Part shown: piece by piece, positions 92-16,598 of the stretch
How positions within the stretch are numbered: position 1 is the first letter of the stretch
How the letters are laid out: each line of letters opens with the position of its first letter
Source: a virus
IMG/VR virus record: IMGVR_UViG_3300045988_052225
Coordinates: 1-38,533 of that record
Length of the DNA: 38,533 nucleotides
Strand: one strand, 5' to 3'
The notes under the pieces: model-generated
What the model was told of the DNA's origin: nothing
Database searches by the model: none
Seen by the model: the letters and a program-made list of their open reading frames with translations, nothing else
Translations under genes and position numbers: made by a program

Positions 92-1258
92 CTACCCAAG
101 GGGCAAGGAAGGGGCAAGGTTATTTGTAATTATATTATCTAAAACATTGACCGCTTGATCCTTCATGTTCCTTGTGACATGAGTATAGATGCTAGTAGTC
201 ACTTCCGAGTCAGCATGACCAACCCTATCCATGATGGTTTTTAGTGGCACATTATTTTCAGCCAATATGCTAATCGTGGTGTGTCTGAAGATGTGAGGGG
301 ATAGATGCTTGTCGATAGGCGTTTCCAGTCTTGTGTTAGCTCGTTGGAGCGATGCACTTAAAATAGTGCTATGGATAGGCTTGCCAGTGTTAGTCGTGAA
401 GATTTTATCGCTATGATGCCAATCTGGATTGGTTGATTCGCTTAACTCTTTCAATTCTAGTATCTGGTCAATAATTTCCATCTCTCGATTAGTGAGGTAT
501 GTAGTTCGGTAACTAGCGACTGTTTTCGTTCCTTCGTTTTCTGGAATGTATCTGTTAAATGAGGTGTGGATATCCAAGGAGCGTGTCTCTTTGTGGTAAT
601 CTGAAACAGTTAGACCAGCCAGTTCACCAATACGGCAACCATTCAAGAGCATAAACTCACACGCTAGAGCGTATCTCAGTGTTATGTCCTTTCGGTAGAG
701 TTCTTTCAATAATCGACTGTATTCGTCTGGTTCTAAGTATTTATTCTTGGCAGCTTGTTGTTTCTCAAGTTTATTCTTTTTCTTTGGGAGTCGTGCCTTT
801 CGTGAGGGGTTATCGTTAATAAGTTGTTGATCCATAGCATAATCGAAGAATGTATTTAGTACGGTCTTAGCACGATATTTCTGTGAATCCGTCCAGTCTT
901 CAGTGTCTAACAAGGATTGAATAAGCCTAACATTGATGTTTGATAGGATTGTTCCTTGTTCAATAGTGTCAGATATTCGTTTAACGGATGCTGCAAGGCT
1001 TTTGATTGAGCTTAACTTAATCTGCTTTTGGTGGAATTCCCACCACTCGTTGAAGACACCGTGGAATGATACATTAGTAGTGCTTGATGATTCTATCTTT
1101 TGGGCTATCTTATCATCCAGCAAGCGTTGAGCCTCTTTCTTTGCTCGATTTGAGCCGCTATTAAGCGTTACAGATACCCGTTTCCATTTCTCAGTGTAAG
1201 TGTCCTTGTATCTTTCGAAATATTTATATTTTCCATTCGGTAATTGTTCTACCCACAT
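92..1258 (-). CDS. int: Tyrosine recombinase, phage integrase
   Basis: 388 aa. Catalytic signature: GCRIGELAGL (Arg), HIFRHTTIS (H-x-x-R), GHADSEVTTSIYTHV (His/Tyr). AAGGAG RBS upstream of the ATG. Located at the genome end next to att repeats. Confidence 0.93.
   Translation of the reverse strand: MWVEQLPNGKYKYFERYKDTYTEKWKRVSVTLNSGSNRAKKEAQRLLDDKIAQKIESSSTTNVSFHGVFNEWWEFHQKQIKLSSIKSLAASVKRISDTIEQGTILSNINVRLIQSLLDTEDWTDSQKYRAKTVLNTFFDYAMDQQLINDNPSRKARLPKKKNKLEKQQAAKNKYLEPDEYSRLLKELYRKDITLRYALACEFMLLNGCRIGELAGLTVSDYHKETRSLDIHTSFNRYIPENEGTKTVASYRTTYLTNREMEIIDQILELKELSESTNPDWHHSDKIFTTNTGKPIHSTILSASLQRANTRLETPIDKHLSPHIFRHTTISILAENNVPLKTIMDRVGHADSEVTTSIYTHVTRNMKDQAVNVLDNIITNNLAPSLPLG
98..119 (+). 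promoter_or_regulatory. Tandem 11-bp repeats AAGGGGCAAGG x2, candidate integrase arm-type sites (P' arm)
   Basis: aaggggcaagg at 98-108 and 109-119. The same AAGGGGCAA core occurs twice more at 38314-38335 in the same orientation with the same 11-bp spacing. Confidence 0.5.
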
Positions 1259-3112: not shown

Positions 3113-4018
3113 ATGAACGAAGTAACATTGTCTAACAACCTTTCTCAAATTGAATTAGAAATAAACCACCACAAGCAAATAGCTGGGCAATCGATTTGGG
3201 AAATTGGTAGACGATTAAACCACGTTAAAGAAAATGATTTGGCACACGGTCAATTCATGGAATGGCTTAAGAAAATAGAGTTTAGTCAGACGGTTGCCAA
3301 TCAGTTTATGAAAGTAGCGAAAGAGCTTCCGAATTCTGTGACGTCACAGAATTTAGGGATAAATGCCCTTTACCTTATCGCAACGCTTCCAGAGGAAGAA
3401 AAGCAAAAGCAAATCGAAAAGATTGAGCAAGGGGACACACCAACGGTCAGAGAGCTGCAAGAGGTGAAGAAAAAACTCAAACTCAAAGAGCAAGCACTTG
3501 AAGCAGTTAAAGGCGAGTTGGAACGCACTAGGCTTGTCAAACCAACTGAAAAGGTGATTGAAAAGGAAGTCATCCCAGACGATTATAAAGCTACGCAAGA
3601 ACTAAATAAGCGACTACTAGCAAAAAACAAAGAGCTTTCAGATAGCGAACAAGCGGCTAACGAGCGAGCGCAATTCATTGAGTCACAACTCAAGGAGCTA
3701 ATGAATCAACGTCAAGAGGTTGATGAAAAATCAGCTAAATACGACGAATTGACAAGAGCTATCGAGCAGTCGCAAGGGCAATTAGACAGCTACCAAAAGC
3801 AAGTATCTGCCTATCGTCACACTATCAACTTTTTGGAAAAAGGAAACAATTTCCTTGCTAACTTTGGCGGTGTTGCATTTCTGGATATTAAGCCAGCATT
3901 AGGCAATCCAAAAGTTAGAACCGAGCTTGAAACATTCCTAACTATGCTGAATAGTCTCAGCCGTAGCGTTTCGGAGATACTGGAACAAGACGATGTGATT
4001 GAAGGAGAAATCTTATGA
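3113..4018 (+). CDS. Early protein, DUF3102-like N-terminus followed by a long coiled coil
   Basis: 301 aa. N-terminal IAGQSIWEIGRRLNHVKENDLAHGQFMEWL...ANQFMKVA is recalled from DUF3102 phage proteins. The remainder is rich in E, K and Q heptads. Confidence 0.5.
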   Translation: MNEVTLSNNLSQIELEINHHKQIAGQSIWEIGRRLNHVKENDLAHGQFMEWLKKIEFSQTVANQFMKVAKELPNSVTSQNLGINALYLIATLPEEEKQKQIEKIEQGDTPTVRELQEVKKKLKLKEQALEAVKGELERTRLVKPTEKVIEKEVIPDDYKATQELNKRLLAKNKELSDSEQAANERAQFIESQLKELMNQRQEVDEKSAKYDELTRAIEQSQGQLDSYQKQVSAYRHTINFLEKGNNFLANFGGVAFLDIKPALGNPKVRTELETFLTMLNSLSRSVSEILEQDDVIEGEIL

Positions 4019-4434
4019 CAAATGACATTATCGGTCAAAGCAAAGACCACGCAAGACAAGTGTCACACCTAGCAGTTACTAGAAACATGCTAGATGCACT
4101 TGAAAACCATGAAGAGCGTATTGCTAACTTGGAAGACAACATGAGAGTGAACGCTGCACAAGAAATGAAGTTGACTAATCTCGTTAACAGTAAAATTGTT
4201 GGATTGCTAGAAGGTAAGCAAAGCAAGGCTTACCGTGACAATCATATTCGAGGTAAAGCTTATTCTGCTATCAACAAAGAGATCGCTAATCGTTTCGGTG
4301 TTAGACGCAAAGAAATTCCTGCTAAAGAATTTAAGAACGCTGTTATCTTTATCGAAAATTGGGGGTTGAGCGACCAAGAACTCAAAGACGAGATTTTTGC
4401 AGCTAACCATCAAATGAGTCTGTTCGAAGCGTAG
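4015..4434 (+). CDS. Early protein, ORF6C-domain-like
   Basis: 139 aa. ATGA overlap with the upstream gene. The pattern ERIANLEDNMRVNAAQ...LVNSKIVGLL resembles ORF6C-type C-terminal domains of phage antirepressor-like proteins (from memory only). Confidence 0.4.
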   Translation: MTNDIIGQSKDHARQVSHLAVTRNMLDALENHEERIANLEDNMRVNAAQEMKLTNLVNSKIVGLLEGKQSKAYRDNHIRGKAYSAINKEIANRFGVRRKEIPAKEFKNAVIFIENWGLSDQELKDEIFAANHQMSLFEA

Positions 4435-5370: not shown

Positions 5371-5397
5371 AAAAAAAGCATGGGTTAGGGCCCATGC
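5371..5397 (-). terminator. Hairpin preceded by A8 (reads as a minus-strand terminator) just before the adhesin RBS
   Basis: a8 (5371-5377 plus 5370), then stem gcatggg (5378-5384) / cccatgc (5391-5397). On the minus strand the hairpin is followed by T8. There is no T-tract on the plus strand. Confidence 0.4.
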
Positions 5398-5429
5398 AAG
5401 ACAAAATTAATTATCAAGGAGATTATACC

Positions 5430-7526
5430 ATGAAATCTTTTAACACTCAAACAACTTCAAAACCTAGCTACGTTAAAACTAAAGCCTATGGCTTGTGCGG
5501 AACGCTTGCTCTTGCTACAGCTCTATTGATTGGAGCTGGGGGAGTATCAGCCGATGAAGTGACTGAAACAGCAGTAAATACTCAACCAACAGTGTCTAAC
5601 GTATACACTGCCGATAACGCTGGGAATTTGACAGTGACACCTAGCGAAACCGCTCAACCAGTGGTGGAAACACCAGCAACAGTCGAAAGTGCACCAGTGG
5701 CAGAAACACCAAAACTGTTAGCACCAGCACCCGTTGAAGCTCAACCGATTGCAGATACTCCATCGGTTGTTACAGAAGCACCAGCGACAACTACAGAAGT
5801 AGCTCAACCAGTAGCTGAAACCCCAGCAGCACCTACTACAGTTACAAAAGAAGGCGACACAATCAACGTTGAAAATCCAAACGTTGAGGTTACTTTCCCG
5901 AATGGTAACGGAAAGTATAGCCCGTTCGAAGTTGAATACAAAGACATTAAAATTCCGGATGATGTGCCGGTGAATGAGGGCGACAAGGTTACTTTTGACT
6001 TGCCTGAAGAAGTGAAATTCCAAACCTCTTACGAGTTTGATGTACATAACCCTGAAAATGCTGTAGTTGGTAAGGCCACAGCGGATGCCTCAGCTAACAA
6101 AGTAACTACTGTATTCAATGACTATTTCAAGACACACCCTCTCAACAAAATCATGAGTCTGAAACTAGATGCAAGCTGGACAGATAAAGTTGTATCGGGT
6201 AAGCCAGTAAATGTCACTTTTAATGGAACGGTAGTAACTGCCAACATTGGTAAGGAGCAGGAAATTGGTAAAGACGAACTCATTTCTAAATGGGGAAGTC
6301 AAGACAAAGAAGATCCTACTGTTATTAATTGGACAGCTCGTGTGAACTACGCTCGCAAAGTGCTCAACTATGTGACAATCATTGATGAAATGAGTGAAAA
6401 CCAAAAGCTGGTTGATAACTATTTCGAAGTCAAAAATATTGAAAGTGTTGATCCTTGGATTGACAAAGGTTCAGCTATGGACTTAGTTAAGTCTATCAGT
6501 AAGTCAGATCGTGGCTTTACTATAAAGATGGATCGCTTGGATCACATGATCTACATCAACTATAAGACTAAGCTTGTTAATGCTGTTAAGGACTCAGTTA
6601 ACCCAACTAACAAAATTGAGTTGAAAGCAGAAACAGATGGAGCTACTTCGTATAGTTATGTGCAACTTGTAGGCGGCCGTGGTGATGCTAGCGGTGAGAA
6701 CAAACCAGAGGAACCAAAAGAGGAACCTAAACCAGAACCACAGCCAGAGCCAAAACCGGAACCTAAACCAGAGCCGGAAAAATGCGAGCCAAAGGTTATC
6801 GAGAAAATTGTTGAGAAACCAGTCGAAGTTATTAAAGAGGTCGAAAAACCGGTTTACATCGAAAAAGAAGTAATCAAGGAAGTGCCAAAAGAGGTCATTA
6901 AGGAAGTCCCAGTAATCAAAGAGGTCATCAAAGAAGTTCCCGTGGAAAAAGTGGTGACTGTTGTTAAAGAGGTACCTGTTGAGAAAATCAAGGAAATCGT
7001 TAAAGAAGTACCTGTAGAAAAAGTTAAAGAAATCATCAAAGAGGTACCTGTTGAGGTAATCAAAGAGGTACCCGTTGAAAAGATTGTCGAAGTAGTTAAG
7101 GTGAAAGAGGTTATTAAAGAGGTTCCAGTCGAAAAGATTGTAACCGTGGTTAAAGAAGTACCGGTTGAAAAAGTGGTTACAGTGATCAAAGAGGTTTGCA
7201 AGTGTGACAAACCAAGTACACCAGCTGAACCTAACACTGATAAGCCAAGCACTGAAAAACCAGTGACACCAACACCAAATAAACCTCAAAAACCTAGCAC
7301 GCCAGAAAAAGCCCCTAAAACGAGCGTAGATAACAAAGCGGCACAATCTGTCGCAGTATCTTACAACCTCGAACCAGTGAACGAGGCACCAAAAACAGCC
7401 GTTTATGGCGGCGTTCTACCAAACACTGGTGAAAAAGAAGGAATTGCTAGCACTCTTGGATTGGTAGTAATCGCAGCAGGTATCACTGGACTTACTCTTG
7501 GGTTTAAAAAACGTAACGAAAAATAA
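5430..7526 (+). CDS. LPXTG cell-wall-anchored surface adhesin (Cna/MSCRAMM-like A domain, RGD motif, Pro-rich and KEVPVEK repeat stalk)
   Basis: 698 aa counted from the ATG at 5430 (AGGAG RBS 7 nt upstream; the track ORF starts at 5394 inside the hairpin). Signal peptide: MKSFNTQ...LLIGAGGVSADE. Cna-like segment: INWTARVNYARKVLNYVTIIDEMSENQKL. RGD at 6678-6686. LPNTG at 7416-7430, followed by a hydrophobic stretch and a KKRNEK tail. Confidence 0.9.
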   Translation: MKSFNTQTTSKPSYVKTKAYGLCGTLALATALLIGAGGVSADEVTETAVNTQPTVSNVYTADNAGNLTVTPSETAQPVVETPATVESAPVAETPKLLAPAPVEAQPIADTPSVVTEAPATTTEVAQPVAETPAAPTTVTKEGDTINVENPNVEVTFPNGNGKYSPFEVEYKDIKIPDDVPVNEGDKVTFDLPEEVKFQTSYEFDVHNPENAVVGKATADASANKVTTVFNDYFKTHPLNKIMSLKLDASWTDKVVSGKPVNVTFNGTVVTANIGKEQEIGKDELISKWGSQDKEDPTVINWTARVNYARKVLNYVTIIDEMSENQKLVDNYFEVKNIESVDPWIDKGSAMDLVKSISKSDRGFTIKMDRLDHMIYINYKTKLVNAVKDSVNPTNKIELKAETDGATSYSYVQLVGGRGDASGENKPEEPKEEPKPEPQPEPKPEPKPEPEKCEPKVIEKIVEKPVEVIKEVEKPVYIEKEVIKEVPKEVIKEVPVIKEVIKEVPVEKVVTVVKEVPVEKIKEIVKEVPVEKVKEIIKEVPVEVIKEVPVEKIVEVVKVKEVIKEVPVEKIVTVVKEVPVEKVVTVIKEVCKCDKPSTPAEPNTDKPSTEKPVTPTPNKPQKPSTPEKAPKTSVDNKAAQSVAVSYNLEPVNEAPKTAVYGGVLPNTGEKEGIASTLGLVVIAAGITGLTLGFKKRNEK
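6783..7205 (+). repeat. In-frame tandem coding repeats (about 12-aa units, V/I-KEVPVEK-V/I-x-x-V) bounded by Cys residues
   Basis: CEPKVIEK...(KEVPVEKIKEIV, KEVPVEKVKEII, KEVPVEKIVTVV and similar)...EVCKC. The degenerate 36-bp DNA periodicity is visible at 6840-7190. Confidence 0.85.
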
Positions 7527-7563: not shown

Positions 7564-8430
7564 ATGGCAGACAATCAAAAATACTATTACATGAGACTCA
7601 AGCAAGATTTCTTCGAAACAGAGGAAATGATAATCCTTGAGTCAATGCAAGACGGCTACTTATATAGCAACATCTTGCTAAAACTGTACTTAAGGAGTTT
7701 GAAACGAGATGGTAAATTGATGTTTAATGACACAATTCCATACAGTGCAGAGGTCTTAGCTACAGTTACACGGCATAGCGTCGGGACGATTGAGAAAGCT
7801 ATGGATGTTTTCCAAAAGCTCGGATTGGTCGAAGTGATGGATGATGGAGCTATCTATATGTTGCAAATTCAGAATTTTATCGGCAAGAGTTCGACAGAAG
7901 CTGAACGAAAACGACGTTATCGAGACAAAATTAAGCTCGAAAAAAGCGACAACCAAGCGGTTTTGGAAGACGTGGGACATTTGTCCACCATAGGGGTGGG
8001 ACATTTGTCCGGACATTCGTCCACCAGAGATAGAGATAGAGATAGAGATAGAGATAGAGATAGAGATAGAAAAGAGATAGAAGAAGAAGTAGAGGATAGA
8101 AAGATATCTTCTGCTACTGCTGATAAATCAGATTTCAATATCTTTGACTATTATCAAAATCGAGTCGGTCTATTAGATGGTTTCCAACTTCAACAGATTG
8201 AAGCCTATCAAGCTATTGATGGATTAGAGCCAGATTTAATCAAGATAGCTATTGATAAAGCAGCCGATAATTCTAAACGCTCTTTTGGCTATGTTAACTC
8301 TATCTTGAAGTCTTGGGCACAGAATGGAATTAAAACCGTAGCCCAACAGCGAGAGGAACAGAATAGTTTCCAATCCAATAAACCAAATAGCGATAAACCA
8401 AAATTTGGTCCAGCTTGTAGCAAATACTAG
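7564..8430 (+). CDS. Phage replisome organizer (DnaD-domain replication initiation protein)
   Basis: 288 aa. The N-terminus YYYMRLKQDFFETEEMIILES...LYLRSL matches the replisome-organizer N-domain pattern. The C-terminus FGYVNSILKSWAQNGIKTV is DnaD-like. It is followed by a helicase loader. Confidence 0.8.
   Translation: MADNQKYYYMRLKQDFFETEEMIILESMQDGYLYSNILLKLYLRSLKRDGKLMFNDTIPYSAEVLATVTRHSVGTIEKAMDVFQKLGLVEVMDDGAIYMLQIQNFIGKSSTEAERKRRYRDKIKLEKSDNQAVLEDVGHLSTIGVGHLSGHSSTRDRDRDRDRDRDRDRKEIEEEVEDRKISSATADKSDFNIFDYYQNRVGLLDGFQLQQIEAYQAIDGLEPDLIKIAIDKAADNSKRSFGYVNSILKSWAQNGIKTVAQQREEQNSFQSNKPNSDKPKFGPACSKY
7972..8081 (+). repeat. Candidate origin of replication: iterons plus a GATAGA hexamer tract inside the organizer gene
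   Basis: gtgggacatttgtcc at 7972-7986 and 7996-8010, with a degenerate third copy ggacattcgtcc at 8011-8022. Then (agagat)x7.5 at 8026-8070, with further gataga copies to 8081. The tract encodes the RDRDRDRDRDRDRDR linker. Confidence 0.6.
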
Positions 8431-8432
8431 AG

Positions 8433-9224
8433 GTGATGCTTATGAGTTTAGAAAGCACAGCTAAGCAAATGCGAAGGCAGTATATGACGGTTAGCGATAA
8501 ATATTGCGAGAAACATAAACGGCATTATATAACCATTCACATCCCAAGCTCAACCCCTTACACTGCATGCGAGCTATGCCATCGTGAGGAACAAGAACGC
8601 TTAAACGCTGTTAAAGCACAAGAGCAGTACGAACGAGAGCAAGAGCAGAAACGCTTGTACTTCCTCAAAGATTTCAGCTTGCTGGATGACGACTTGAAGA
8701 ATGCTAGCTTTGACAATTACAAGGCAGTAACCAGAGAGCAGAAAGAAGACTTGAAAAATGTCAGAAATCAACTTAAAGGCTATCTTGACGGTCAAGACTA
8801 CAACATTGTTTTGATTGGCGATACTGGAGTGGGTAAAAGCCATCTAGCATATTCAGCACTCAAAGCCTTGTCTGATCATACGAAGAAGATGGGGCTATTC
8901 ATCAACGTGGTTGACCTATTAGCCAAAATCAAAGAGGACTTCAGTCTTGAAGCCGAATACATCAGACGCATTTCGGAAGCTGAATGGCTAGTGCTCGATG
9001 ATTTAGGGACTGAAAAAGTGACAGAGTGGTCTAACGGTATCTTGTACAGCATTTTGAACAAGCGTACCAAAACTATCATTACCACCAACTTAAGCCCACG
9101 GGACATCATGGGCACTTATGGAAAGCGTGTCTATTCTCGAGTGTTCAAGAAGACAGGACTTGGAACGACGAATGAACATGTTTATCAGTTTAAGACACAA
9201 CAAGACAAGAGGATGATGCTTTGA
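8433..9224 (+). CDS. DnaC/IstB-like AAA+ helicase loader
   Basis: 263 aa. Walker A GDTGVGKSH, Walker B LVLDDLG. The start may be the ATG at 8442 (AGAGG RBS at 8428-8432). Confidence 0.85.
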   Translation: MMLMSLESTAKQMRRQYMTVSDKYCEKHKRHYITIHIPSSTPYTACELCHREEQERLNAVKAQEQYEREQEQKRLYFLKDFSLLDDDLKNASFDNYKAVTREQKEDLKNVRNQLKGYLDGQDYNIVLIGDTGVGKSHLAYSALKALSDHTKKMGLFINVVDLLAKIKEDFSLEAEYIRRISEAEWLVLDDLGTEKVTEWSNGILYSILNKRTKTIITTNLSPRDIMGTYGKRVYSRVFKKTGLGTTNEHVYQFKTQQDKRMML

Positions 9225-13744: not shown

Positions 13745-14257
13745 GTGAACAGACTTAAAGAGTTACGGAAATCACAGAAAATGACAAGAGTGGAGTTAGC
13801 CGAAAAAATTGGGGTTACAAAACTGACCATTCTTAATTGGGAACATGGCACCCATGAAATCAAAGGAAGTAACGCTAAGAAGTTAGCTGACCTCTTCGAT
13901 GTATCAATCCCATATTTGCTAGGTTACGATACCGATAACACATTTTCGGGACTAATCAATAAAATCAACGACTGGGCTGACACCCGTGGATTAAAGCAAG
14001 CTGACCCTAAGATTCAGTGGATGCGAATCACAGAAGAAGTAGGAGAAATTCGGGATGTACTCTTGAAACCGACTAAATTCACGGAACCGCAAGAAGCACT
14101 TAAGGACGCAATCGGTGACACGTTGGTAACAATTATCGTGCTAGCACATCAATTAGACCTCGATGTTACTGAGTGTCTAAGTATTGCATACGAAGAAATT
14201 AAAAATAGAAAAGGAAAGATGGTAAATGGAACATTCGTCAAGGAAGAGGATTTATAA
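13745..14257 (+). CDS. Fusion of an XRE-type HTH with a MazG-like NTP pyrophosphohydrolase domain
   Basis: 170 aa with a GTG start. HTH: LKELRKSQKMTRVELAEKIGVTKLTILNWEHG. MazG-type EExGE (ITEEVGEIRD) and DxxGD (DAIGDTLV) motifs sit in an all-alpha C-terminal domain. Confidence 0.7.
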   Translation: MNRLKELRKSQKMTRVELAEKIGVTKLTILNWEHGTHEIKGSNAKKLADLFDVSIPYLLGYDTDNTFSGLINKINDWADTRGLKQADPKIQWMRITEEVGEIRDVLLKPTKFTEPQEALKDAIGDTLVTIIVLAHQLDLDVTECLSIAYEEIKNRKGKMVNGTFVKEEDL

Positions 14258-14778: not shown

Positions 14779-15489
14779 ATGAGCGTGAGATACAAATATT
14801 CCGGACTGACACCAGAATTATATCAACGGCTGGTCAGTGAACATGCGGCACTTAGAAAAACACACAAAAAAGGCTCTTATAAGCAGTTCTTTCAAGATGT
14901 CAAACAGTGCAGTGAAGCACAAGCACGTATCATTTACCAAGCGTTTAATAGTGCAGTCGTTGAACGTGCGAGGATATCTCCACAAACTGTCGATAGACTA
15001 GAAGGCATTATCTCCGATGAATTATTCGACGACCTTCAAGATTATCTGTCTACTAATTACACAAGGGGCAAAACCACGCGCCCAGTGTTGGAGAAAACCA
15101 ACGCAGGACTGCCAGAGGAACTGTTCAAACGATTCCAAGAGGAAGTGGAAGGATTACGCAAGGAACACCCTAATAACCTAAACAACTACATTAGAGGGGT
15201 TAAAGGGTGCGACCAGAAAACAGCTAACAAAACCCAAAACGCCCTCAATCTGTGCTATGTTGAGAAAGCTGCGCTAACACCATTGAAGGCGGTTCAAATG
15301 GAAGGAATGCTATCAAGAGAGCTATTCAGCGAGATTATTGATTATGTATTCAATAACTATGAATGGAGCGAGAGATTGGACAATGAAGTTGACCGCATCA
15401 TTCTTAAATATAGAACTAAGGGCAAGGTAGGTCGTGATAAAGCAACGGTCAGAAAAGCCCTATATACAGCCTATGCGTTAGGCGTGTAG
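14779..15489 (+). CDS. Hypothetical protein built from two tandem copies of a roughly 100-aa domain
   Basis: 236 aa. Residues about 10-95 and about 110-195 align: L-P-E-L-x-x-R...LRK-H...VK-C...VE-A...EG-x-S-x-ELF...DY...NY. Confidence 0.6.
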   Translation: MSVRYKYSGLTPELYQRLVSEHAALRKTHKKGSYKQFFQDVKQCSEAQARIIYQAFNSAVVERARISPQTVDRLEGIISDELFDDLQDYLSTNYTRGKTTRPVLEKTNAGLPEELFKRFQEEVEGLRKEHPNNLNNYIRGVKGCDQKTANKTQNALNLCYVEKAALTPLKAVQMEGMLSRELFSEIIDYVFNNYEWSERLDNEVDRIILKYRTKGKVGRDKATVRKALYTAYALGV

Positions 15490-15528
15490 CTAGAACGGTT
15501 TACGAGGGTTCGACTCCCTCACTAGCTA
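15487..15528 (+). ncRNA. tRNA-like minihelix 1 (acceptor stem plus T-arm only; not a canonical tRNA)
   Basis: 7-bp stem tagctag (15487-15493) / ctagcta (15522-15528). 10-nt linker aacGGtttac. T-arm gaggg-TTCGACT-ccctc (15504-15520). One bulged A (15521). It overlaps the TAG stop of the upstream CDS. Confidence 0.45.
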
Positions 15529-15603
15529 TTACCAGTAAATAAGAAATTAGAATCGAGGAGCCTTTTTTATTTCGTTCACTAATCTAAAGCGTCTTACTGG
15601 TGG
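15529..15603 (+). ncRNA. Long nested hairpin immediately 3' of minihelix 1
   Basis: accagtaa (15531-15538) pairs with ttactggt (15594-15601), plus two flanking U-G pairs. Inner pairings are attag (15546-15550) with ctaat (15579-15583), and gaa(t)cgagg with tttcgttc. Confidence 0.4.
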
Positions 15604-15717
15604 CGTGATTATTCAAGGCTTTATGCCTGCAAAAAGATATAGGTCAGAAATCTCCATAATTCACACTACTTTATTCTTGAAAGGGGAATATCCCCGATAA
15701 TGATTTCACTATATCTA

Positions 15718-15760
15718 GGCTGGAATGGTTACTCAAGGGGTTCGATTCCTCTTGCCAGTC
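15718..15760 (+). ncRNA. tRNA-like minihelix 2 (same architecture as minihelix 1)
   Basis: Outer stem ggctgg (15718-15723) / ccagtc (15755-15760). 10-nt linker aatGGttact. Arm caagggg-TTCGATT-cctcttg (15734-15754). One G-U in each stem, which is consistent with plus-strand RNA. Confidence 0.45.
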
Positions 15761-15812
15761 ATTGTCTGTCATCACTAAAAATAAAAAATGAATATAGATT
15801 TTTAGTGACTTG

Positions 15813-15862
15813 AACACTTTTTTAACACTTTTTCAACACTGTCGAGCTGACAGACCTCGACA
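15813..15862 (+). promoter_or_regulatory. Three helically phased AACACT(T) repeats followed by a 7-bp-stem hairpin
   Basis: aacact at 15813, 15824 and 15835 (11-bp period, each followed by a T-tract). Then tgtcgag (15840-15846) / ctcgaca (15856-15862). Confidence 0.45.
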
Positions 15863-16053
15863 CCAAAACCCAGCAAATTTAAGAAAAAAGGATGTGAAAC
15901 ACCCTCTTTCTTATTGATATCTTGCATTACTAAACAAAGCCAAAGACCTTGCTGGTGTCATTTGGCTAGAAAGGAGGTGATAAAAAAAGACCGACACAAT
16001 GGCCGGCACTCTTTGAAAGTCAACACTACTATTATACCAGAGAGGTCAGAGAA

Positions 16054-16470
16054 ATGCTATTGCCGGAAATTGATGAAAAAGCAACGATCAAACGTTGCAA
16101 GCGCAAACTTCGAGAATACCCACGCTGGCGAGAGATTGCACACGATGGCGCTGAACAGAAAATAACACAGGAATTCACATTCATGCCAAGAGGCGGTAGC
16201 GGAGTGAGTAGACCAGTGGAAAATATCGCAGTTAGGCGTGTCGATGCAATGAACGAGCTTGAAGCTATAGAGCAAGCAGTTAGCGGGCTATATCGTCCAG
16301 ACTATCGCAGAATACTGATAGAGAAATATCTAACTTATCCACCTAAACCCAACTGGCAAATCGCCCAAGCAATTGGATTCGAAAGGACAGCCTTTCAAGA
16401 ACTGCTAAATAATGCTATCCTAGCATTTGCAGAATTGTATAGAAATGGTCAATTAGTCGTAGAACGTTGA
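16054..16470 (+). CDS. ArpU-family late transcriptional regulator
   Basis: 138 aa. LPEIDEKATIKRCKRKLREYPRWREIA and the C-terminal HTH-like IAQAIGFERTAFQELL. Position is directly upstream of the terminase genes. Confidence 0.75.
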   Translation: MLLPEIDEKATIKRCKRKLREYPRWREIAHDGAEQKITQEFTFMPRGGSGVSRPVENIAVRRVDAMNELEAIEQAVSGLYRPDYRRILIEKYLTYPPKPNWQIAQAIGFERTAFQELLNNAILAFAELYRNGQLVVER

Positions 16471-16550
16471 GATTTCGGTATTTTGACGGATAAAGCACGG
16501 TATCTTACAAGTGTTTAAAGTGGTATTATTGTATTATCGAAGAGAAACGG

Positions 16551-16579
16551 AGACAACTCATTTTGTGGGTTGTCTTTTT
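16551..16579 (+). terminator. Hairpin plus T-tract between the late regulator and terS
   Basis: agacaac (16551-16557) / gttgtct (16569-16575), 11-nt loop, then tttt (16576-16579). Confidence 0.5.
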
Positions 16580-16598
16580 CAGTATCGGAAAGGAGTTG

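Follow-up and report, generated by a model that had tools for sequence, protein, structure and literature searches.

What does the long gene-free block between the early genes and the late activator gene of a temperate Streptococcus siphophage encode? The phage is represented by IMG/VR record IMGVR_UViG_3300045988_052225, whose positions 1 to 38,533 (38,533 nucleotides, nt) form the window analysed here. The block, at 15490-16053, is flanked by the gene of a DUF1340 protein (14779-15489, plus strand; PF07067, 1.8e-75), its constant upstream neighbour, and by the gene of an arpU-type late transcriptional activator (16054-16470, plus strand, the entry from 16041 including the ribosome-binding site (RBS) GAGAGG; phrog_248, 4e-44). 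Comparison of related loci indicates that it very probably specifies a functional folded RNA on the plus strand, built of modular units in which a tRNA-like minihelix precedes hairpins whose loops are complementary to nearby single-stranded tracts. This modular leader of tRNA-like and pseudoknot type belongs to no described family, and it resembles several known principles.

Modular units and their covarying helices

The unit was defined by comparing more than 200 related loci: 80 IMG/VR loci collected via DUF1340, 119 loci collected via a T-arm...GTCTGTCA pattern (about 90 of them members of this family, the others chance matches to real tRNAs), the same intergenic region from 12 named phages, and one genomic prophage. 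These contain 122 distinct full units of 180-280 nt each, which consist of a minihelix, motif a, an optional A/U hairpin, one to three repeats of ACAC with a U-run, hairpin b, the sequence CCAG(Y)AA, a loop of 45-65 nt (purine-rich, then U-rich) and hairpin c, in that order. 3' of DUF1340, a locus has a single T-arm or a pair separated by 214-362 nt. Motif a (GTCTGTCA) always lies 3-4 nt past the last T-arm, and its reverse complement, motif b (TGACAGAC), follows 36-100 nt later. Two complete copies of the unit are found in some loci (L050, L081 and L211). The window comprises a unit 1 without the stretch from a to b (15487-15606), a variable spacer (15607-15717) and a complete unit 2 (15718-15966). 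The spacer, with an identity of 0.67-0.87 among relatives, contains the hairpins AGGC-TTTAT-GCCT (15616-28) and GGGGA-ATA-TCCCC (15683-95). In relatives, GGAGG-AAAA-CCTCC replaces the second of these, and one-unit phages lack the spacer altogether. One locus (L004; IMGVR_UViG_3300045988_016946) encodes a DUF1340 protein 100% identical to that of the window, yet its intergenic region is of the one-unit form and leads to a different regulator, which shows a recent exchange of modules exactly at this junction.

The minihelices resemble the stacked acceptor and T-arm of a tRNA, and the motif GGTTCGAnTCC occurs at 15507 and 15739 within the T-arm-like structures at 15487-15528 and 15718-15761. Minihelix 1 (15487-15530, plus strand) consists of the 5' arm TAGCTAG (15487-93), a 9-nt bulge (AACGGTTTA), the T-stem (C)GAGGG, the T-loop TTCGACT (15509-15), CCCTC, the 3' arm CTAGCTA (15522-28) and TT. 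Minihelix 2 (15718-15763, plus strand) consists of GGCTGG (15718-23), a bulge (AATGGTTACT), CAAGGGG, the T-loop TTCGATT (15741-47), CCTCTTG, CCAGTC (15755-60) and A-TT. Among 105 unique minihelix variants, 12.4 of the 13 positions counted outward from the T-loop pair on average, versus 9.5 in a control with shuffled 3' arms, and several pair types are found at each of the stem positions 3-13. Pairing in minihelix 2, for example, is kept in the variants GACTGG/CCAGTC, GGCGAG/CTCGTC and GACGGG/CCCGTC, and RNAalifold independently finds the T-arm, with four covarying pairs. The T-loop TTCGA[ACT]T is always enclosed by an invariant GG and CC. An unpaired purine follows the stem, then TT in nearly all variants (R-TT-R); CCA follows in none. 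A 5' bulge of 9-10 nt (AAYGGTTnn) is present in the Streptococcus salivarius types and absent from the Streptococcus thermophilus types. The element therefore combines about 12 stacked pairs, a 7-nt UUCRANY T-loop, a G53-C61 closing pair, a discriminator and a CCA-less trailer, as expected of a minihelix substrate. The remark in the initial annotation of the window that G-U pairs fit the plus strand only holds for the minihelix stems, where 152 G·U cells contrast with 9 A·C cells, identifying the plus strand as the folding strand.

The minihelix overlaps or abuts the stop codon of DUF1340 in all lineages, and in the window this codon (TAG, 15487-89) forms part of the 5' arm of minihelix 1. In three loci (L073, L077 and L078) an open reading frame (ORF) of 310 amino acids (aa) is inserted between the DUF1340 stop codon and the minihelix, which stays with the downstream region (in L073, for example, at 3225-4157 and 4180-4230 respectively); a 13-nt copy of the 3' end of DUF1340 (GTTAGGCGTGTAG) still precedes the minihelix there. 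The inserted ORF may encode a DNA methyltransferase, a guess from sequence context. The record of phage 2972 (NC_007019; L212 2690-2705, L213 1-20) is linearised inside the first minihelix. Compared with phage O1205, 2972 lacks 16 nt (TCCACTATGAGTCATT), so that its minihelix 1 is truncated and its second unit intact. A relic of an attachment site or host tRNA was considered and rejected: the 3' half of minihelix 1 matched no host tRNA among 185,579 representative genomes, the single match being a prophage, and no locus has a large insert between the minihelices.

Downstream of the last minihelix, two pairings between a single strand and a hairpin loop recur. The first (PK1) joins motif a and hairpin b. 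Motif a (15764-15771, plus strand) begins 3 nt past minihelix 2 and is complementary to eight of the nine loop bases of hairpin b (15840-15862, plus strand; stem TGTCGAG/CTCGACA, loop CTGACAGAC at 15847-55); at the RNA level, GUCUGUCA faces the invariant loop CUGACAGAC. The loop is invariant save for rare A8G variants, while at least seven versions of the stem occur, including GTCGAG/CTCGAC, GGACAAG/CTTGTCC, GAGCAAG/CTTGCTC, GCATCG/CGATGC, GTATCG/CGATAC and GATTATCG/CGACAATC. Six of its seven pairs show changes on both sides, and its covariation score is 0.548 versus 0.148 after shuffling (0/500), with at most 0.154 when the partner is slid. Motif a directly follows the last minihelix in nearly all loci, including those of S. 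thermophilus phages, and the 8-base-pair (bp) complementarity of a and b is kept from S. salivarius to S. thermophilus phages, where DUF1340 is only ~45% identical. Rare variants (A8G in b; G or T at position 8 of a) give G·U pairs or one mismatch. Between the two motifs (15772-15840, plus strand), the window has an A/U-rich hairpin (TCACTAAAAAT, 15772-82; ATTTTTAGTGA, 15798-808) and three (A)ACAC(T)TTTT repeats (15810-40) spaced by 11-12 nt. The loop of this hairpin measures 3 to ~45 nt in relatives and the repeats number one to three, some relatives lacking both.

The second pairing (PK2) joins CCAGNNA to a UNNCUGG tract in the loop of a further hairpin. In unit 2 (15870-15966, plus strand), CCAGCAA (15870-76) pairs with TTGCTGG (15949-55) within the loop CTTGCTGGT of hairpin c (15939-15966, plus strand; GCCAAAGAC at 15939-47, GTC-A-TTTGGC at 15957-66), and the intervening loop holds AAGGATGTG...CACCCTCTTTCT, with a part resembling an anti-Shine-Dalgarno (anti-SD) sequence at 15900-11. 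In unit 1 (15532-15606, plus strand), CCAGTAA (15532-38) pairs with TTACTGG (15594-15600), the loop of the hairpin GCGTC/GGCGT (15589-93 and 15602-06), across a loop that contains the SD-like GAGGAG and then a U-run. Unit 1 of this phage has lost the stretch from a to b; the undeleted form is seen in the two-unit relatives L211, L050 and L081. Across loci, CCAGNNA and TNNCTGG lie 60-85 nt apart, and their two variable pairs covary (CAA/TTG, TAA/TTA and TCA/TGA, with U·G intermediates). On concatenated flanking segments, which form a constructed alignment, 95.2% of cells pair and the covariation score is 0.218 versus 0.099 for shuffles (0/500), or at most 0.053 with slid partners. The stem of hairpin c differs by lineage (GCCAAAGAC/GTC-TTTGGC, GTAGTCAAAG/CTTTGACTAC, AGTCTTGC/GCAAGACT, AGCCTTG/CAAGGCT and CCAAAGC/GCTTTG(G)). 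Each pairing loop has 9 nt and opens with a C ahead of the pairing tract, as in an H-type pseudoknot whose first loop measures 1 nt. PK1 combines a covarying stem with an invariant loop pairing, and PK2 a covarying loop pairing with a weaker stem. RNAalifold, which derives a nested consensus, chose a:b and CCAG:CTGG as consensus helices in sets of 66 and 55 units. The two helices of each predicted pseudoknot may coexist or alternate.

Every hairpin and inverted repeat listed in the initial annotation is present in the block, the outer arms of the nested 75-nt hairpin being ACCAGTAA (15531-38) and TTACTGGT (15594-15601). What had escaped notice is that the outer stem of this hairpin and the hairpin at 15840-62 each belong to one of the pairings between a single strand and a loop. 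The predicted fold of the plus strand (-141.3 kcal/mol) is more stable than that of shuffled sequences (-121.2±6.0; z = -3.4), and the minus strand shows a weaker excess over shuffles (z = -1.8). The covariation of four helices across related loci weighs more than these energies, with weaker support for the stem of hairpin c. The claim that no ORF of at least 60 aa exists on either strand across 15490-15913 is borne out: the longest ORFs there measure 31-48 aa at a cut-off of 25 aa, and an 83-aa ORF with a TTG start begins at 15914 and overlaps arpU. Small conserved ORFs (of 31-48 aa, from an ATG at 15700, or from a TTG after a strong SD in relatives) were rejected, as frames and lengths differ among relatives; the window lacks the segment that follows the SD in relatives carrying the TTG ORF.

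The unit is widespread and keeps the same order of elements in all 12 named phages checked: the Moineauvirus phages 7201, DT1 and CHPC663, the Brussowvirus phages O1205, TP-J34, CHPC1246, P7953 and 2972, the Piorkowskivirus phage 9872, and the S. salivarius phages SA-TP2, Javan536 and YMC-2011. They include cos- and pac-type packaging and different replication modules. DUF1340 is found in 336 phage records, and the RNA unit was present in every intergenic region sampled. The best named relative of the block is that of SA-TP2, with 83.5% identity across 91% of the block, and the arpU-proximal end at least is common to 98 Streptococcus phage records. Identity to the window, measured in 27 close relatives, amounts to 0.91-0.95 in the minihelices, 0.93 at 15889-15918, 0.94-0.97 at 15979-16038, 0.67-0.77 in the spacers and 0.77-0.93 in DUF1340. 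The block is thus about as conserved as its flanking genes, with peaks at the minihelices and in the arpU-proximal 60 nt. The initial annotation had overlooked that one part of the block, 15529-15717, is absent in many syntenic phages. The GenBank record of TP-J34 carries six unlabelled "stem_loop" features in this region, which the TP-J34 paper does not discuss. A literature search on the tRNA-like element, ArpU transcripts and the non-coding regions of 7201 and Sfi21 found no description beyond these features, and a paper on AcrIIIA1 and tRNA fragments proved unrelated to the element.

Comparison with known RNA families

The initial annotation had suggested a single large structured RNA of the ROOL or GOLLD family, citing the host clade, the gene-free length and the tRNA-like neighbourhood. 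This specific assignment is wrong at the level of the tools applied. The whole window gave no match to Rfam 15 at gathering score, which lends no support to ROOL, GOLLD, transfer-messenger RNA (tmRNA) or an intron. At E≤10, the region 15300-16250 gave solely a 13-bit match to the 3' end of tmRNA (its last helix and T-arm), where 47 bits are needed, and no line for ROOL or GOLLD. The homologous regions of TP-J34 and of one two-unit relative gave the same outcome, and ARAGORN found no tRNA or tmRNA gene in the window or in the relative L211. Nor does the block behave as one fold of near-constant length: it measures 345-775 nt among close relatives whose DUF1340 proteins are 86-100% identical, modules being gained and lost. 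That it should be ROOL, GOLLD, tmRNA or another described large RNA has next to no chance. The fallback of the same annotation, an unclassified structured phage RNA, fared better. Compensatory changes and a plus-strand G·U bias across the minihelix, hairpin b and CCAGNNA:UNNCUGG, conservation close to that of the flanking genes and presence in distant S. thermophilus phages all speak for it.

ROOL and GOLLD share with the unit that they are non-coding, structured, several hundred nt long and associated with phages of Lactobacillales. The unit differs in giving no covariance-model match and in being modular, variable and of 180-280 nt, not one large conserved fold. A tRNA is excluded by the absence of a cloverleaf, the acceptor and T-arm being the only arms present. 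There is a likeness to tmRNA, which also has an acceptor and T-arm without an anticodon arm, a short G-containing bulge at the site analogous to the D-loop and hairpin-loop pseudoknots thereafter, and whose T-arm gave the sole Rfam signal. However, the acceptor strands of the unit are local, there is no P2 helix, no resume codon or tag frame and no CCA, and the unit is embedded in an mRNA and negative by ARAGORN. The G3:U70 pair is also missing: depending on whether the register has 12 or 13 bp, its counterpart three pairs in from the end of the stem would be position 10 or 11, of which the former holds C-G or U-A and the latter G·U in only 13 of 105 variants. No ORF is conserved.

Other likenesses concern principles. 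The C4 antisense RNA of phages P1 and P7 (immI) is also a phage regulatory RNA, cut by RNase P from a transcript of the same strand, with loops complementary to sites on that strand. In the present case there is no match to the Rfam C4 model, the host is Gram-positive, the partners lie 40-100 nt apart within one unit, there is no ant or icd target, and processing is putative. Punctuation by tRNA-like modules (the tRNA-miRNA transcripts of MHV68, MALAT1-mascRNA and mitochondrial tRNAs) offers the same succession of a tRNA-like module and a structured RNA, sometimes in tandem, with ends made by RNase Z or RNase P. Those systems are eukaryotic, whereas the unit has a minihelix only, a bacterial host and putative cleavage. 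The STAB-SD stabilisers of Firmicute mRNAs (cryIIIA) and structures that sequester a 5' end recall the SD without a start codon at 15968-81 and the pairing at a putative processed 5' end. Any resistance to exonucleases is putative, and the ring fold of exonuclease-resistant RNAs (xrRNAs) is not implied. Finally, anti-Q (paQ) and oop of lambda are short antisense transcripts in the late-activator region of a temperate phage; the candidate antisense RNA described below would differ in lying upstream of the activator RBS and in its length of ~45 nt, and is predicted solely from the conservation of a promoter and a terminator.

A candidate leader mechanism and its rivals

What the unit does may follow from where it lies. 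Work on phage 2972 placed ArpU in the cluster of early genes and detected no primary promoters other than one early and one middle one (PMC11551762), so that an early polycistronic RNA is the simplest setting for the block. In keeping with this, a σ70 scan of the block yielded plus-strand sites no better than in shuffles, and a terminator scan yielded no convincing plus-strand terminator inside it. RNase Z, RNase P, CCA-adding and T-loop-modifying enzymes recognise a T-loop on a helix of 12-13 bp that is followed by a purine discriminator and UU trailer. Given these features, and as a plain stabilising hairpin needs no invariant T-loop, the minihelix is proposed to be a processing signal.

On this proposal, the block would be the leader of arpU in the rightward early transcript and would carry one truncated and one complete RNA unit. 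Host RNase Z and/or RNase P would cut at the minihelix and part the DUF1340 message from the arpU leader. Cleavage after the discriminator would leave the DUF1340 message with a stable tRNA-like 3' hairpin, and the new 5'-monophosphate end would lie 2-3 nt ahead of GUCUGUCA; in 2972, ends would be expected near GTTAGTCTGTCA, 1-3 nt past the minihelix. The a:b pseudoknot would then tuck in the new 5' end and keep RNase J1 from degrading the RNA beyond it in the 5'-to-3' direction. Further protection, of STAB-SD type, could come from AGAAAGGAGGTGAT (15968-15981, plus strand), a 14-nt perfect SD that no start codon follows at a usable distance and whose core GGAGGTG(A/G)T is kept in all lineages; its role as a stabiliser is inferred. 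A minus-strand RNA of ~45 nt would oppose arpU expression, and all steps together would set the timing and amount of ArpU, hence late gene expression. We put forward this mechanism tentatively, at somewhat less than an even chance.

The antisense component is the candidate gene of a small RNA at 15982-16039 on the minus strand. It comprises an extended -10 element (TGGTATAAT, 16039-16031) upstream of the arpU RBS, a leader of ~16 nt, the hairpin GCCGGC...GTCGGT (16007-15990) and a U7 tract (15988-15982). The element TG[G/A/T]TATAAT is present in 111 of 121 unique contexts and lies 40-43 nt from a run of at least six A in 104 of these 111. The hairpin reaches -10.2 to -12.7 kcal/mol on the minus strand versus -2.3 to -7.3 on the plus strand. 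It is found in four lineages with three unrelated sequences, a U7 following each, and point variants remain compatible with G·U pairing only if the minus strand folds. A terminator scan also flags this minus-strand hairpin near arpU. A conserved minus-strand -10, fixed spacing, and a G+C hairpin and U-run that work on this strand alone are the signature of a small antisense RNA gene, and the locus probably encodes an RNA of ~45 nt antisense to the arpU leader. In 2972, its 5' end would be predicted ~7 nt downstream of TGATATAAT. A boxA-like reading of CTCTTTGAAA (16010-19) was discarded, the sequence not being kept among lineages. Mimicry of a CRISPR repeat, with a resemblance of only 8-10 nt, was likewise set aside.

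Several observations weigh against the proposed mechanism. The a:b pairing shows no covariation, as both partners are invariant; it shrinks to 7 bp in phage 7201, and the invariance of a and b could instead reflect binding of a protein or a trans-acting RNA. The contiguous stem of hairpin c averages only 3.5 bp versus 2.5 in the control, and with so short a local stem this hairpin and the long-range pairing may be alternatives and not a pseudoknot. With up to 13 bp in some types, and often a 5' bulge of 9-10 nt, the minihelix is no textbook minihelix. Were RNase P to cut at its 5' arm, the DUF1340 message would lose its stop codon, at an apparent cost. Phage 2972 has only a truncated minihelix 1, and phages can do without the first unit altogether. 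No antisense promoter was reported from TEX-based RNA sequencing (RNA-seq) of 2972, whose libraries, however, would not capture an RNA of 45 nt (PMC11551762). Cleavage, decay protection, the antisense transcript and the regulatory outcome, that is, every step past folding, are what we infer from the sequence comparisons.

Of the alternatives, one keeps the structures and moves their action in trans: the units, with a tRNA-like head and a pseudoknotted body, may be freed as stable non-coding RNAs that serve as a decoy or sponge, or as a guide via CUGACAGAC/GUCUGUCA. Candidate targets are factors that recognise tRNA elbows, the SD or the invariant loop, such as ribosomes, tRNA-modifying or -cleaving enzymes or a defence nuclease. 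Such a role would fit the strict invariance of the T-loop and of the 8-9 nt of a and b while the stems drift, the SD-like tracts in each unit, the occurrence of one or two tandem copies as in arrays of processed RNAs, and a layout that recalls the tRNA-like domain and pseudoknots of tmRNA, down to the resemblance of the T-arm. It is unlikely, however, as no promoter or terminator bounds a unit, and the extra copies of the a/b 8-mers in the window, as potential targets, are at chance level (3 versus 1.46 expected). The element also lies constantly upstream of the late activator, which favours a role in cis. A different cis-acting device would be a switch on transcription or translation that controls whether the early operon is read through into arpU, either through a protein site like the boxB of a lambdoid nut site or, in the manner of a riboswitch, through alternative pairing or coupling to translation. 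Local helices would compete with long-range ones, and the SD with the anti-SD-like CACCCUCUUUCU, and ribosomes finishing DUF1340 would melt the minihelix. Indeed, the last DUF1340 codons contain the 5' arm of the minihelix, nested folding sets local helices against long-range ones, the first ACAC repeat offers motif a a second possible partner, the anti-SD-like CACCCTCTTTCT (15900-11) is complementary to the SD-like 15968-79, and an invariant loop on a variable stem is the pattern of boxB. Yet the scan detected no plus-strand intrinsic terminator in the block, the minihelix persists where it is no longer at a translated stop codon, and there is no candidate RNA-binding protein, the DUF1340 model having no structural match. 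We consider a switch of this kind quite improbable.

The block could also act as DNA, the ACAC repeats and the inverted 8-mers GTCTGTCA/TGACAGAC serving as an origin or operator, or the T-loops being recombination boundaries or relics of tRNAs or attachment sites. Iteron-like repeats at helical spacing, an A/T-rich hairpin and the inverted 8-mer pair are suggestive of the former, and chimeric minihelices and b-stems point to recombination within them. The origins of S. thermophilus phages are, moreover, non-coding and repeat-rich (PMC6356513). In Sfi21 and DT1, however, the same source locates the origin in the replication module or the cro-ori region (PMC6356513). In the window the replication genes (7564-9224) lie 6 kb upstream of the block, and the element is common to phages with different replication and packaging modules. 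An origin of replication was rejected on these grounds and on that of covariation: compensatory changes in three helices and the 152:9 bias of G·U over A·C are those of a folded plus-strand nucleic acid and not of binding sites in duplex DNA. The lack of a host tRNA match for the 3' half of minihelix 1, and the continued linkage of the minihelix to the downstream region where a 310-aa ORF is inserted after DUF1340, further diminish the case for sites in DNA, which we hold to be very improbable.

An extended version of the leader mechanism would see here an undescribed class of RNA: tandem units of a minihelix and a double pseudoknot, excised by tRNA enzymes and acting as RNase J1-resistant leaders or as decoys for ribosomes or defence systems, which time the late switch together with the ~45-nt antisense RNA. 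This is a possible but rather doubtful extension. If true, it would constitute a bacterial counterpart to the tRNA-linked RNA units of eukaryotic viruses, in a unit that has no Rfam family. It would bring tRNA-like processing signals and 5'-end-sequestering pseudoknots to the mRNAs of Gram-positive phages and add a candidate antisense regulator of an ArpU-family activator. Among biological hazards to yoghurt and cheese fermentations, phages of S. thermophilus rank first, and the human mouth and gut commonly harbour S. salivarius phages. As the unit sits where early transcription meets the late-gene activator, it is a plausible control point of the lytic timetable and a plausible conserved target for anti-phage measures. 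The predictions are directly testable with the public RNA-seq data of 2972 and by CRISPR-based phage editing in S. thermophilus.

Neighbouring genes and minor features

The integrase gene of the window (92-1258) is on the minus strand, and all remaining genes are directed rightward. An early ORF of 710 aa (5394-7526) has no PHROG match at E≤1e-5 and lies upstream of the DnaD-like and DnaC-like replication genes. The ORF at 13745-14257 encodes an HTH_3 domain fused to a weak MazG-like domain (in the phages of S. thermophilus, a "DNA binding protein"), and HTH-MazG, DUF1372 and DUF1340 form a conserved gene set ahead of the RNA element. DUF1340 is an internal duplication of two helical repeats of ~110 aa (...ISDELFDDLQDYLSTNY / ...LSRELFSEIIDYVFNNY). 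It has no sequence match in the PDB, and its AlphaFold model (pLDDT 69.7) found nothing better than E = 0.9 in Foldseek and no structural neighbour in the PDB, so that modelling yields no functional lead.

The gene of the small terminase subunit starts at 16563, after arpU. In the gap between the two genes, the minus strand at 16528-16556 carries a promoter-like TTGTCT-17-TACAAT (9/12), which may be due to chance and overlaps a terminator-like structure. The latter, a hairpin GACAAC...GTTGTC followed by TTTTT on the plus strand (16540-16580), was overlooked by the terminator scan owing to its 11-nt loop. A terminator is annotated at the equivalent position in TP-J34, and the early transcript probably ends at this hairpin, before the ArpU-dependent late promoter.

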